Shown here piece after piece: positions 11,572-61,994 of a stretch of DNA of 64,000 bases. The notes under the pieces were generated by a model that was given only the letters and a program-made list of their open reading frames with translations, was not told where the DNA came from and ran no database searches. The position numbers and the translations under genes were made by a program. Source of the DNA: Eledone cirrhosa (Eukaryota); assembly GCA_964016885.1 (NCBI GenBank), contig OZ024749.1:51398001-51462000 (forward strand), in the 5' to 3' direction. Each line of letters opens with the position of its first letter. Position 1 is the first letter of the stretch.

Positions 11572-12272
11572 GGTTTCTGATTTAAGCACAAGGTCAACAG
11601 TTCTGAGGGGGAGGAGAAAGTCAATTAAATCAATCACAGTACATTACTGGTACTTTATTTTATTGACCCCATAAGGATGAAAGACAAAGCCAACCTAGGC
11701 AGAATTTAAACTCAGAACGTAAAGGTCCATAACTCTATGCCACAAAGCATGTTGTTCAACTCTCTGCTGATCCACCAATACTGATAATAATTGTTTCTAG
11801 TTTTGGAAAAAGGCCAGCTATTACCCCAGTGTATTACTGGTTCTTTATTTTACCGACCCGGTAAAGATGAAAGGCAAAGCTAACCTTGGCGGGATTTGAA
11901 CTCAGACTGTAAAGGCCCATAACTCTATGCTGCAAAGCATGGCGTCCGACTCTCTACCGATACTACCAATCCACCACCTTTATTATAATAATAATAGTTT
12001 CTGATTTAGGTACGCAGCCAGCAATTTTGGGGAGAGGAAAAAGTTGATTAAATCAACTCCAGTGTGTTACTGGTACTTTATTTTATCAACCCCTTAAGGA
12101 TGAAAGGCAAAGCTAACCTCAATAGGTTTGGTCTCTGATTTAGGCACAAGGCCAACAAATTTTGGGGAGGAGAAAGTTGATTAAATCAACCCTAGTGCAT
12201 TACTGGTACTTTATTTTATCAACCCCATAAGGATGAAGAGCTAAAGCTAAAGCAAATCTTGGCAGGATTTAA
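11572..12272 (-). mobile_element. SINE family 1, cluster of ~4 copies
   Basis: Repeated actggtactttattttat..accc..taaggatgaaaggcaaag core. Confidence 0.8.
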
Positions 12273-12783: not shown

Positions 12784-12888
12784 ATGTGTATATATATATA
12801 TATATATACACACACATACACATATATATTCTATTATGTGTTCCAGCCAAGGGGCTGAGGCCATGCTGGGGCACTGCCATTTTTGGAA

Positions 12889-13008
12889 ATGGCTTACAGT
12901 ACTTAGAGTTCCCAAGTGGTCACCATCTAAGTACTAACTAGGCTCAACATTGCTTAACTTCAGTGATCGGACAAGAACCAATGTTTTCAGTGCGATATGG
13001 CCATAAAT
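12889..13008 (-). pseudogene. 5S rRNA-derived sequence (CpG-decayed), head of a putative SINE3
   Basis: Reverse complement atttatggccatatcgcactgaaaacattggttcttgtccgatcactgaagttaagcaatgttgagcctagttagtacttagatggtgaccacttgggaactctaagtactgtaagcc is collinear with animal 5S rRNA, including box A (AGTTAAGC) and the TTAGTACTT-GATGG-GACC region. Differences are mostly C>T/G>A. Confidence 0.9.
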
Positions 13009-13071
13009 ATATATATATATATATATATATACGATATTAACAAATGGAAACTATATTTATAAAACCATATT

Positions 13072-13136
13072 TATTTCATTATACATATTTCAAGGACACC
13101 AAGTTAAATTATGGTGTGCTTTCATCAGACAAAATA
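13072..13136 (-). ncRNA. Mirror copy of the same hammerhead ribozyme on the minus strand
   Basis: Exact reverse complement of 13349-13413 in the left IR arm (tcatcag at 13122-13128). Confidence 0.7.
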
Positions 13137-13348
13137 TAATATAGATCAGTTTTATAAATAAATATTTTCTCTTTTTCTCTCTCTCCTTCTTTTTCTTTCT
13201 CTATAACCCAACGGCTTATTTTAAAATAAAAATATCCAATACTAATAATAATATAAGTAAACAACTCCACTATCGGGGAGCTTCCAACAGTAATGGTTGC
13301 ATTTTTTAAGGGTATGTCAATATTTATTTATAAAACTGATCTATATTA

Positions 13349-13413
13349 TATTTTGTCTGATGAAAGCACACCATAATTTAACTTGGTGTCCTTGAAATAT
13401 GTATAATGAAATA
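13349..13413 (+). ncRNA. Type I minimal hammerhead ribozyme (predicted cleavage after 13405)
   Basis: Order on + strand: tattttgt (stem I), CTGATGA, aagcacacc/ggtgtcctt (stem II), GAA, ATA-tg-TAT (stem III), A|, atgaaata (stem I partner; 8 bp with 2 G-U). Confidence 0.7.
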
Positions 13414-13540
13414 AATATGGTTTTATAAATATAGTTTCCATTTGTTAATATCGTATTTTTACACCAAATACTTGTTGAGTGCTTTATATCAGTTATAAAA
13501 ATATTTGCTTGTTGTATCCCAACAATTTAAATAGAACTTT

Positions 13541-13596
<56 letters not shown>

Positions 13597-14657
13597 TAAA
13601 GGTGGGCTAAGAAGTTCATAGGCTGATAATGAAGGAGTGATTCTAGAGCTGTGAAATCTTGCATGCATTAATTTCAACCCTCAGTTGTGTCAAAGACATG
13701 ACAACCTCCCTTGCGCACTCAGTAAAATGTGAGATTCTACATAAGCAAGACACTGATCCCTGGATTGTCTGGGAGATGAGTGGCCCTGCTTCAGTACTCA
13801 CTTGGTTATAGTAGACCCATCCAACCCTTGCTAGCAGGGAAAGTGGGTGTTAAAACAATGTTAATGATGGTGTGTGTGTGTGTGTGTGTGTATCTACATT
13901 AGTGTTTGTGTGTGTAATAGTGTAAAATATTGCATTAAGTTGCATCCCTTTACATAAAAAGGTAACTTATCAATTTAATGGAAAGATTGATAAAATACCA
14001 GGCTAAAATAAGTCCTGGTTTCAATATAATTCACTCAAAGAAAAACCCATTGAAAATAGTGTCCGAGCATTACCACAGCCAAATGATTGAAACCAGTAAA
14101 AGAAGAAATTAAAAACAAACAAAATAGTAAATTAAGTGAATGAAAACAGAAAATAACTTCCAGAAAATCTGGGACTACTGGAAGTTAAGGCAAGCAATAC
14201 AAGGCAACACCCAAAATAGAGAAATGAAAACTGTCTCTCAGACTCTCAATGAGGTTATATAGACACCAAAAAAATATGAGAGTAAAATTTCATTTCATTG
14301 ACAGAAGATATGGACTAAAACCAGCAGACAACTTATACTTATATACAGCACAGTGATGTTGACTAAGTGATGTTAATATGATAGGTTGTTTAGTCAACAG
14401 TAGTTAGTGACTGGTGTGTGTATCTGTGTGTGTGTCTGTGACTACTGTTTGTGTGTGTATGTGACTGGTGTGGGTGTGTGTGGGGGGGTGTCTGGTGTGT
14501 GTATGTATGTGTGAGTGTTTGTGTGTGTGCTGGTTTTGAAGTGTAAAAGTTGGTAAAACAGGAGAAAGTATACTGCTCAACTATTGCCATCCTCGCTGTG
14601 TACTTCAGGTTTCAGTTAATATATCTTCCACTTCCTTCCTTTCTATATTAATAATCT

Positions 14658-15830
14658 TTCACTGTTACATACTAACTACATACACTGTTACATACTAACT
14701 ACATACACTGTTACAGGCTAACCATATACGCTGTAACATACTAACTACATACACTGTAACATACTAACTACATACACTGTTACATACTAACTACATACAC
14801 TGTTACAGGCTAACCATATACACTGTAACATACTAACTACATACACTGTAACATACTAACTACATACACTGTTACATACTAACTACATACACTGTTACAG
14901 GCTAACCATATACACTGTAACATACTAACTACATACACTGTTACATACTAACTACATACACTGTTACATACTAACTACATACACTGTTACAGGCTAACTA
15001 CATACACTGTTACAGGCTAACTACATACACTGTTACATACTAACTACATACACTGTTACAGGCTAACCATATACACTGTAACATACTAACTACATACACT
15101 GTAACATACTAACTACATACACTGTTACAGGCTAACTACATACACTGTTACAGGCTAACTACATACACTGTTATATACTAACTACATACACTGTTACATA
15201 CTAACTGCATACACTGTTACATACTAACTACATACACTGTTACATACTAACTACATACACTGTTACAGGCTAACCATATACACTGTTACATACTAACTAC
15301 ATACATTGTTACAGGCTAACTACATACACTGTTACAGGCTAACTACATACACTGTTACATACTAACTACATACACTGTTACATACTAACTGCATACACTG
15401 TTACATACTAACTACATACACTGTTACATACTAACTACATACACTGTTACAGGCTAACCATATACACTGTTACATACTAACTACATACACTGTTACATAC
15501 TAACTACATACACTGTTACATACTAACTACATACACTGTTACATACTAACTACATACACTGTTACATACTAACTACATACACTGTTACATACTAACTACA
15601 TACACTGTAACATACTAACTACATACACTGTTACAGGCTAACCATATACACTGTTACATACTAACTACATACACTGTAACATACTAACTACATACACTGT
15701 TACATACTAACCACATACACTGTAACATACTAACTACATACACTGTAACATACTAACTACATACACTGTTACAGGCTAACTACATACACTGTTACAGGCT
15801 AACCATATACACTGTCAAATACTAACCACA
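14658..15830. repeat. 23-bp minisatellite (actgttacatactaactacatac / actgttacaggctaaccatatac), ~50 units
   Basis: Direct tandem array with interleaved unit variants. Confidence 0.95.
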
Positions 15831-21818: not shown

Positions 21819-22915
21819 AGCAGGGATATATAGCTAGAGGGTGTCTTTACCCCATTGACCAACATACTAGGGTATATATATATATATAGATGATGATGAT
21901 GATGGTGGTGGTGATGGTAACTATGACACTGATGACCCCCAATGACTGTAGGGATATATAGCTAGAGGGTGTCTTTACCCCATTGACCAACATACTAGAG
22001 TATATATATATAGATGATGATGATGATGGTGGTGGTGATGGTAACTATGACACTGATGACCCCCAATGATAGCAGGGATATATAGCTAGAGGGTGTCTTT
22101 ACCCCATTGACCAACATACTAGAGTATATATATATAGATGATGATGATGATGGTGGTGGTGATGGTAACTATGACACTGATGACCCCCAATGATAGCAGG
22201 GATATATAGCTAGAGGGTGTCTTTACCCCATTGACCAACATACTAGAGTATATATATATAGATGATGATGATGATGGTGGTGGTGATGGTAACTATGACA
22301 CTGATGACCCCCAATGATAGCAGGGATATATAGCTAGAGGGTGTCTTTACCCCATTGACCAACATACTAGAGTATATATATATAGATGATGATGATGATG
22401 GTGGTGGTGATGGTAACTATGACACTGATGACCCCCAATGATAGCAGGGATATATAGCTAGAGGGTGTCTTTACCCCATTGACCAACATACTAGAGTATA
22501 TATATATAGATGATGATGATGATGGTGGTGGTGATGGTAACTATGACACTGATGACCCCCAATGATAGCAGGGATATATAGCTAGAGGGTGTCTTTACCC
22601 CATTGACCAACATACTAGAGTATATATATATAGATGATGATGATGATGGTGGTGGTGGTGGTGGTGGTGGTGGTGGTGGTGGTAACTATGACACTGATGA
22701 CCCCCAATGACTGTAGGGATATATAGCTAGAGGGTGTCTTTACCCCATTGACCAACATACTAGAGTATATATATATAGATGATGATGATGATGGTGGTGG
22801 TGGTGGTGGTGGTGGTGGTGGTGGTGGTAACTATGACACTGATGACCCCCAATGACTGTAGGGATATATAGCTAGAGGGTGTCTTTACCCCATTGACCAA
22901 CATACTAGAGTATAT
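21816..22915. repeat. ~124-bp tandem repeat, ~9 units
   Basis: Units start at 21816, 21944, 22068, 22192, 22316, 22440, 22564, 22709, 22854; internal (TA), (GAT) and (GGT) tracts vary in length. Confidence 0.95.
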
Positions 22916-59863: not shown

Positions 59864-61994
59864 TCCATCATGGTGTTGTTGTTGTCATTCACACTCAGTC
59901 TGTTTGTGGTGTCCCCTCTCATATTTTCTGTCTGCATTAGCTTCTCAAGTGACAAATAACTGCAGAAGCTACTAGAAATATACAAAGGGGCATTTCTTAG
60001 GGTAAACTGTGATGAGAAAGAAATCAGTGTCAGCATATACATACAGATGATGTCATCATAATGATGTCAGACATCATAGAAGTGGAAGAGGATGTAGATG
60101 TGGTTGTGGTTGGCACCATTTTAAAGAGATACAAGAATACAAGACTACGTACCCAGGCTGGGGATTATTGATATAGTAAGCCATGACAGACTAGGGGAAG
60201 TATATAATACTTCTCACAGTTGAGAAGAACATAAGGTATGATAGACAGTGAATATAAAGGCTTGATAAGTGAAAATAAAAAGGAAAAGGAAAATGTTTAA
60301 ATAGGGAAGGCCAACAAGAGGAAGAATAAGTATAAGAGAAGAAAAATTGAAAAGGAAAAGAAGGGAAGCTGTAAAGATGCTAGAAGTTTCTGTAGTTGAA
60401 TCTTTTCATAATGGAGACTTCTAGTGTCCTTGAGCCTGGTTATATGATACAAAGCTGTTTATTTTAATGGGTTTATTATATTTATCTAAAAAAAATCTTT
60501 TATCATAATTTTACACAAAATCCTTTCTTAAGTTATGCTCCAGTTTAATTTAATTTTAACATATGCTACCCCGAAAAAAAAATATTCAAAGATATACAAC
60601 GAACCTGCATAAAAAAAAACAGGATGCTAGATGAGAATAATGAATTGGTTACAAACTTTTACCAAATATTTTTGATAAAAGTTTGAATATTTACAACACA
60701 GGTGGGCAGTGAAAACATTTTCCCCTGTGAAAGTGGGCCATGATGCAAAAAAGGTTGGGAAACCCTACGTATTCCCTTTATAAGCCAGTTTCTGCCACTA
60801 TGGTCTTGCTCCCTTTGCCTAAAAATGTAGGGAGTACCTTAAGTGTTAAAAGCTACCATGACAGCTACGGATGACAGAAGTTACAATTTCTTAAAGAAAT
60901 CTAATAACTTTATATTCTTCTTCTTTGTCCACTTATTCCTGGGAGGGTTGTAAGGGGAAAGGCCTCAAGTATTCCTTCCAGCAGGTCATGTCAGAAGCAA
61001 CCAACTCTAATTGATCTGGCTGGCTGGGTCCCCAATCAAGACCATAACATCATATTAACCCTCTCGTTACCTCAATTCTAACGAAATATTTTGTATTTTA
61101 ATTAATTAATGAAGAAATTTTGGGAGGATTTACTAAAATTGCAAAGAGTACTCAATATATTAGGAGAGAAGATAGAAATATATTTCAGATATCTTCTACA
61201 GGACAAAAACGGTTTCATTCATTAGAAATCATCAGGATCAGATGGTTTCAAATCAATAAAACAATTCTTGTCCTGCAGAAGTCATTTCTATATAAACTAA
61301 ATTTGTGTGTGCGTGTAAGCGTATATATGAGTGTGTGTATATGTGTACACGTATGTGTGTGTGTATATATGTGTGTGTGTACACGTGTGTGTGTGTGTGT
61401 GTGTACACGTGTGTGTGTGTATGTGTGTACACGTGTGTGTGTGTATGTGTGTACACGTGTGTGTGTGTATGTGTGTACACGTGTGTGTGTATATGGGTGA
61501 CACGTGTGTGTGTGTGTATGTAGACATGTGTGTGTATGTGTGTACACGTGTGTGTGTTTTGTGTTATATATGTCTTTCTAAAAACTTTTTTTGCATTCTT
61601 GATAGTGCATGAGTAACCATGTCCATTGGTAACAGATTTTGAAGACAGTGTTTTAAAAAACATCTGTAGAGATATGTAGAATGCAGAATTACATTGCAGA
61701 TCTTTGATTGGTTAAATTTTGCTGCATTGCATAACATTCTGCAACTAGATTCCACTCATCTACACTGTATTGTTTTCTTTTGTTTAGTTTTATGTTTTTG
61801 GTTTGTTTTGTTGTTCTTATACATAACTTTTCCCATATGTGGTAAGAAACATGAGACCATAAATTCAGGTTAATTAAAAAAAATATTTGTATTATTAGTT
61901 TAATATTTCTAAGTCATTTTTTTTATTATTATTTTTTATTTATTTTTTGTTTACTTTAATTACAATAACTGATAAAGTTTTCATCTATATTTAT

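Follow-up and report, generated by a model that had tools for sequence, protein, structure and literature searches.

Paired inverted arms of a putative Hydra-clade Penelope-like element in Eledone cirrhosa end at two different fixed sites

Introduction

Does a hairpin-shaped insert that carries a hammerhead ribozyme motif on each strand serve a regulatory function where it stands, or does its shape record the way in which a retroelement was copied into DNA? This question is raised by a 515-base insert without an ORF in Eledone cirrhosa, located at 13029-13543 of a 64,000-nucleotide stretch of contig OZ024749.1 (assembly GCA_964016885.1, positions 51,398,001 to 51,462,000), which is referred to here as the window. 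An initial annotation, made from the sequence alone, described the insert as the product of a very recent event and proposed that it acts within the pre-mRNA of a host gene as a switch between self-cleavage and sequestration in double-stranded RNA.

Several published observations bear on this question. In Craig 2021 (PMC8557442), Hydra-clade Penelope-like elements (PLEs) are characterized by DKT in place of DKG, RWK, a CxCx5C linker, CxxC and CxH, by the lack of GxKF/Y and CCHH, and by insertion into (TA)n; they are generally shorter than 3 kb, which is a tendency and not a diagnostic. The same paper describes the PLE insertion unit as "often" comprising a partial tandem, an inverted 5'-truncated copy and a one-sided tail of 30-40 bp, and treats the origin of the inverted structure as an open mechanistic question. 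For the Poseidon element PAc of Anolis, the tail is flanked by two internal start sites of reverse transcription; in vitro, both target strands undergo cutting and extension, and hammerhead cleavage is assisted by protein and is not needed for insertion (Frangieh et al. 2024, PMC11167929).

Results

Anatomy of the insert

The annotated inverted repeat is real and exact, with 138 bp at 13029-13166 matched by 13319-13456 across a spacer of 152 nt; no other exact inverted match within 12800-13700 is longer than a 28-bp stretch of (TA)n. The span first assigned to the repeat, 13029..13543, does contain it, but position 13543 marks where an 87-nt single-copy tail stops and not where the repeat does (Table 1). 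Arms of this family end either at a site that we call A (13456) or at a site that we call B (about 13543, which is A plus the 87-nt tail), and the window copy joins a left arm ending at A to a right arm ending at B, with no more than about one extra base at the junction (13166/13167). The left arm, on the minus strand, matches the 3' end of a full-length copy (L107), and in ORF-bearing copies the equivalent of the 87-nt tail sits between the 5' pLTR and the ORF leader. Tracts of (TA)n flank the insert on both sides.

Table 1. Features of the insert and its flanks, in window coordinates.
Feature	Position	Strand	Remark
Left-flank (TA)n target microsatellite	13009..13028	.	First 3 arm bases possibly microsatellite too
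Left arm: 138-nt 5'-truncated copy of PLE 3' end (pLTR)	13029..13166	-	Terminus is site A
Type I hammerhead motif	13066..13143	-	Core from 13128; predicted cut 3' of 13080; mirrors the plus-strand motif
Spacer: single-copy part of right arm (PLE 3' UTR / pLTR)	13167..13318	+	Polypyrimidine tract at start
5'-stop hotspot common to the family	13269..13276	+	CACT motif; window copy reads through
Right arm, duplicated portion up to site A (13456)	13319..13456	+	Element 3' end
Type I hammerhead motif	13342..13419	+	Extended stem I, CUGAUGA 13357-13363, stem II, GAAA, stem III; predicted cut after 13405
Tail of 87 nt, site A to site B	13457..13543	+	Single-copy
Right-flank (TA)n target microsatellite	13544..13590	.	

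The surroundings contain further repeats. A 5S rRNA-like copy (12891-13008, minus strand, 81.8 bits in Rfam) abuts the TA tract with its 5' end, shares no more than 90% identity with the other copies found and is an old dispersed pseudogene; none of nine other 5S-like copies has the element within 1.5 kb, so that its adjacency to the PLE is attributed to chance. The window also holds a two-unit tandem of about 120 nt (12000-12250) and a short-period minisatellite (14660-15000).

The hammerhead motif

Each strand carries the parts of a type I hammerhead as annotated, with a CUGANGA and GAAA core, an NUH triplet and three stems of which stem I is open, and CTGATGA is found at 13357 (plus strand) and 13128 (minus strand). 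In the plus-strand motif, stem I pairs 13349-13356 with 13406-13413 as described previously and extends for six pairs more than was stated. Stem II pairs 13364-13373 with 13384-13393 with one C-C mismatch, and is followed by GAA(A), by a stem III of 3 bp with a 2-nt loop (ATA-TG-TAT, forming the palindrome AUAUGUAU) and by the AUA triplet, which does occupy 13403-13405. An Rfam search of the insert returned no hammerhead, at neither the gathering score nor E 10, and the motif call consequently rests on inspection and on variation within the family.

Among 48 copies picked by their flanking sequence, core position 7 varies in 10 and takes all four bases, while each other core position differs in 0-1 of the 48. 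An alignment of 22 copies (the window copy and 21 of 30 loci, leaving out five partner arms and four copies with deletions or truncation) shows two-sided changes at 3 of 9 pairs of stem II, and 93.3% of 582 stem cells are paired as compared with 39-53% in slid controls. The number of two-sided cells (24) was reached in 0 of 500 shuffles and the number of pairs with a two-sided change (4) in 91 of 500, figures that are inflated by the relatedness of the copies; the 3' side of stem I was partly fixed by the probe. Subject to that relatedness, the pattern points to selection on the source elements. A separate array with a 124-nt period is present at window 21900-22900, in which each of seven units contains CTGATGA; no GAAA follows a short stem there, so this array is probably not a retrozyme.

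A Hydra-clade family with intact ORFs

We consider it nearly certain that the insert is the scar of a PLE insertion, and by its sequence it appears to be pLTR material from a high-copy Hydra-clade family that is a new family of a known kind. One related locus (L034) has a pLTR with hammerhead, the 87-nt tail, a broken ORF, a 3' region of 1.8 kb and a second hammerhead, and its 3' end corresponds to window position 13456 and is followed by (TA)n. This order of pLTR, tail, ORF, 3' UTR, pLTR and (TA)n is shared by L034 and L107, with the pLTRs direct in L034, both direct and inverted in L107 and inverted in L110 and L111. The L107 copy (L107:1447-5945) measures 4,499 bp including the 5' pLTR, which is above the tendency for less than 3 kb. 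Its 3' region (L107:4013-5945) is about 1.9 kb in length, making the family about 4.5 kb and longer than described Hydra-clade families. Additionally, L034:510-1762 (plus strand), 3 kb upstream of the Hydra-clade copy, contains a broken PLE of another type with RT and GIY-YIG-like frames, which we take to be Neptune-like by its motifs.

Loci picked for long open frames include intact ORFs of 742 aa (L105 and L107) and 745 aa (L108). The L107 ORF contains RWR, DKT at 118, YRDD, CNCRNKSNC at 601-609, CDLC at 699 and C-x-H at 726, as well as a VVY...YVG / RFNNH region; it lacks GxK[FY] and has no cysteine pair within the GIY-YIG core (no CCHH). When L107 was aligned with 64 of 120 listed homologs, these motifs were conserved across the 65 proteins, with DKT present in 58 and the RWK/RWR column occupied by K in 47 and by R in 14, R being the residue of the window family. 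Searches of Pfam and of PDB sequences gave no label to the intact ORF or to the broken ORF pieces; Pfam matched one of the 65 members to RVT_1 and one to GIY-YIG, and a PDB profile search of the ORF family was blank. The nearest named protein is from Argonauta hians (39%), and the assignment as reverse transcriptase and endonuclease rests on the motifs together with a by-eye likeness to Hydra-1_Obim.

Compared with what PMC8557442 reports for Hydra-clade PLEs, the family has a putative C-terminal endonuclease, the same DKT, CxCx5C, CxxC and CxH without CCHH, the same (TA)n target and the same kind of type I hammerhead with a tiny palindromic stem III. For example, the Penelope-13_HM element described there has an inverted 5'-truncated copy with the same hammerhead on both strands, as does the window insert, and the protein blocks of Hydra-1_Obim resemble those of L107 by eye although its hammerhead differs in sequence. 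The window family departs from those descriptions in having RWR instead of RWK, a length of about 4.5 kb with a 3' region of 1.8-1.9 kb as opposed to less than 3 kb, an 87-nt tail and tens of thousands of arms.

A short, non-coding, high-copy, hairpin-shaped sequence with a hammerhead could also be a MITE, a fold-back DNA transposon or a retrozyme with true terminal inverted repeats. We regard this as vanishingly improbable, as arm lengths and junctions vary in every copy, which largely refutes it, and ORF-bearing copies of 3-6 kb are delimited by the same ends. Non-LTR retrozymes consist of tandem 170-400-nt units that each carry a hammerhead (bioRxiv 10.64898/2026.07.22.740005; for context, see also PMC11722881), whereas the window has no tandem hammerhead units, only two opposed arms.

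Copy number and age

The core 23-mer has 4,971 exact matches in the 2,996-Mb genome (0 for a control). Genome-wide matches number 32,907 for a 31-mer located 3' of the cut site and 11,136 for a sister-subfamily motif with a non-U base at position 7. Eleven minus/plus pairs lie within 300 bp of one another among the first 100 core matches listed, which by extrapolation gives roughly 550 inserts with the exact 23-mer on both strands. An automatic call finds two arms in 49 of the 87 core-bearing groups in the fetched loci, a lower bound in view of very short partner arms in L047 and L064; the 38 of 87 groups that were not paired automatically show one arm only, and some of these have very short or missed partners. 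The two-armed geometry is thus a common insertion product of the family, and the special recent event that had been supposed is not supported.

The identity of the arms had been taken to imply great recency. The identity itself holds, but 0 differences in 138 positions allow a divergence of about 2% (95% bound). Among 32 insertions with arms of at least 80 nt, mean arm-arm divergence is 2.4%, and three, the window copy included, have perfect arms. The window copy has two near-private substitutions (13275 and 13463) in about 210 single-copy bases, a rate at which about 2-3 arm differences would be expected and at which zero has a chance near 0.1. It is young for the family and not provably very recent. 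A two-armed insertion at L024:735-1177 has identical 168-nt arms that lie 7% away from any other arm in the sample, and its left arm carries a changed core (CCGATGA); identical arms that are this distant from other copies indicate that arm identity may also come from homogenisation or from an unsampled (dead) source.

The perfect identity of the arms would also be expected from an assembly or library fold-back artefact at the window locus. This explanation is very improbable given that the two arms end at different biological sites, each next to its own (TA)n and a distinct flank, and that an asymmetric 152-nt spacer is present. Furthermore, 29 of the 32 insertions have diverged arms, so that the geometry is real in this genome.

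Predicted folding and the proposed switch

The view that a host pre-mRNA carries the ribozyme as a cleave-versus-dsRNA switch draws on the intact core and stems of both strands and on stem II, which when folded alone has a predicted probability above 0.9. On either strand, however, the antisense arm is transcribed about 240 nt ahead of the sense ribozyme, which leaves no co-transcriptional window for the ribozyme, and in the predicted fold of the full insert the test pairs of stem I and stem II have probability 0.0 on both strands. Predicted folding energies are -229/-239 kcal/mol for the whole insert versus -8 to -13 for the ribozyme region. Stem III of the monomer has a predicted probability of 0.0 even alone, and a duplex of its palindrome is predicted to contribute only -2.2 kcal/mol.

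A dimer is not available to rescue cleavage. According to Cervera and de la Pena 2014 (PMC4209133), minimal hammerheads of metazoan PLEs cleave weakly and need tandem dimers, in agreement with what the initial annotation stated for motifs with a tiny stem III. The motifs reported there are type I with a short palindromic helix III, as found here; they are expected to act as tandem dimers with low activity, whereas in the window the second copy is antisense and would block instead of complementing. Each strand has one sense ribozyme, and no further copy of the element lies within the window.

In the window and 30 kb of flank, 150 of 190 candidate frames gave no Pfam match above the cut-off and no host exon was found, which is weak evidence since such a scan could miss short or unannotated exons. 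The only match among these frames was a sub-threshold one to DUF7657 at 61692-61913. In addition, the motif is kept on both strands in 13 of 56 two-armed insertions, so no local function is needed to account for this layout. Given the order of transcription, the lost stems and the missing dimer partner, we hold the switch to be extremely improbable. If the insert is transcribed, folding predictions suggest that it would likely form a hairpin and not a switch, with the hammerhead in this scar a passenger that would be locked in duplex in any read-through RNA.

Arms pair site A with site B

To describe the arm ends across the family, we used two samples, drawn largely from the initial 130 Mb of contig C1. 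The first comprises 82 loci representing 99 of the first 100 listed core matches (two duplicates dropped), 28 ORF-selected loci (two duplicates dropped) and the window, and the second comprises 74 loci picked by the downstream 31-mer. In the first sample, which has nearly as many B ends as A ends (91 and 98), automatic calling of 63 adjacent minus/plus end pairs gave 58 A+B, 4 A+A and 1 B+B (p 8e-13 for 58/63 against 0.5). By eye, three of the A+A pairs and the B+B pair are internal sites of longer arms, which brings A+B to 62/63 and leaves L024 as the remaining A+A case. All 33 pairs of the second sample are A+B with no correction (p 1e-10). The two samples together are A+B in 95/96 pairs after correction, with 5/96 departing from this rule before it; one insertion in L035 duplicates another, and for pairs of more than 700 bp the partners were assigned by adjacency, so that neighbours could be among them. 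Ends adjoin TA repeats in 173 of 189 cases in the first sample and TA or CA repeats in 104 of 109 in the second.

The L035 duplicates (L035:1048-2296) are two complete two-armed insertions that form inverted duplicates 340 bp apart, and reflect either a larger palindrome or an assembly effect. At L050:4543-4684 a 142-nt insert lies at the arm junction and by eye resembles a dispersed repeat at window 12060-12125; it represents either foreign template taken up at the junction or a later insertion.

Junctions of 46 short insertions show 1-10 nt of overlap (21), blunt joining (4) or extra bases, mostly few (21). In 35 of 45 short insertions the B arm continues at least 20 nt beyond A, and in 10 of 45 it comprises hardly more than the tail; of the two arms, A is the one extending further 5' in 35 of the 45. 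Arm positions and lengths in these short insertions are approximate, and the sample was chosen for the core motif. One recurrent 5' stop is evident at 13269-13276, where 22 of 90 arms in short insertions start and where several subfamilies have CACT by eye. This hotspot is likely either the RNA 5' end (a transcription start) or a pause site of the reverse transcriptase; the first possibility would account for the many arms of 188 nt and 275 nt. The 5' start of L107 lies about 14 nt upstream of the hotspot. The right arm of the window copy extends 102 nt 5' of 13269, which implies that its template included 3' UTR and tail, as in B-ending copies such as L106.

None of the first 30 arms start at the ribozyme cut, and no more than 1-3 of 100 start near the cut, with no clear peak (the nearest are L200 at about 13408 and L163 and L187 at about 13397-13400); in the second sample, 95 of 100 arms continue through the cut-site region.

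Discussion

We are confident that the insert represents an ORF-less Hydra-clade PLE insertion in (TA)n, composed of two head-to-head arms for which reverse transcription was likely primed once on each target strand. That this priming used two sites as well as two strands is the reading that we favour, with moderate assurance. An endonuclease would nick both strands of (TA)n, after which one 3'-OH would start cDNA synthesis at B and the second would do so at A, probably from a single RNA; each site has a few TA-like bases with the potential to pair with (TA)n. The B cDNA would usually continue through A by strand displacement, or would follow the A cDNA, and a B cDNA that runs through A copies the ribozyme region twice. 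The two cDNA ends may then be joined by end repair with little homology. A stricter version is more tentative, though nearly as likely to be right as wrong: the pair would be obligate and coordinated, the two target strands would be primed on the same RNA, one at each site, and displacement would duplicate the ribozyme region.

Two other routes to the inverted structure need to be weighed. A single cDNA started at B could fold back, copy itself and be cut at A by the endonuclease (for the idea concerning the tail, see Craig 2021), which would also give A+B pairs and identical arms. Fold-back is geometrically possible in the window copy, where the B arm spans the whole A arm (13167 versus 13319). 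However, a fold-back copy cannot exceed its template, so the longer 5' reach of the A arm in most short insertions disfavours a single self-copying cDNA, as does the subset in which the B arm is little more than the tail; we judge this route unlikely. Alternatively, the arms could derive from two RNAs, held as two templates by a dimeric enzyme or used in two successive events at one TA tract. A dimer has been predicted for the lizard enzyme (PMC11167929), and the arms overlap, which one RNA allows only with strand displacement. The distances between copies point both ways: mean arm-arm divergence (2.4%) is below the 4.5% to the median other copy (n=32, p 2e-6), which speaks against two RNAs, and is not below the 1.7% to the nearest other sampled copy, which speaks for them. 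Independent events would moreover yield A+A or B+B about half of the time, as against 1/96 observed after correction and 5/96 before it. Two RNAs are thus rather doubtful, though less so than fold-back, and priming at two sites on the two strands is the account that we retain.

Published mechanisms resemble this account in part. The PLE unit in PMC8557442 likewise has its inverted arm placed 5' and its tail at a single end; that paper speaks of "often" where our counts show a near-strict A+B rule (95/96 after correction), and gives a tail of 30-40 bp where ours is 87 nt and confined to one arm (62/63 and 33/33). PAc shares the two start sites of reverse transcription around the tail and an AT-rich target, and uncleaved RNA is its main template, which may be compared with the 95/100 arms that pass the cut-site region here. 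It belongs to another clade, its reverse transcription starts inside the ORF whereas ours starts 5' of the ORF, and its start sites are non-homologous to the target and equal between strands (PMC11167929), in contrast to the few TA-like bases at both A and B. The absence of any start-site difference between strands for the lizard enzyme in vitro argues against strand-specific priming at A and B (PMC11167929). The many copies of this family with a single arm also weigh against the account. In the literature searched, with most subscription papers outside our reach, we found no explicit A+B rule or twin-priming account of PLEs, and beyond the papers cited we found nothing on octopus PLE hammerheads or editing.

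In twin priming of L1, primers from the two target strands produce an inverted 5' part that is joined by microhomology. The second primer of L1 lands variably and the parts are not known to overlap, whereas in the present family it has a fixed site and overlap between the parts is usual.

The window locus itself is ordinary, and the value lies in the A+B rule of the family, which ties two published start sites of reverse transcription to the inverted structure of PLE insertions. The fixed and different end sites of the arms likely reflect how the element is copied into DNA. If the pair is obligate, a single twin-priming reaction at fixed sites would have left both the PLE tail and the inverted arm, and this family, with tens of thousands of arms and intact ORFs, would be the best substrate with which to prove twin priming. 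Head-to-head PLE scars would silence their own hammerheads in read-through RNA, which corrects a tempting reading of such loci as switches. The family would at the same time be an abundant source of long hairpin RNA for its host; in a coleoid cephalopod such as E. cirrhosa these hairpins, numbering hundreds to thousands, could be candidate substrates for RNA editing.
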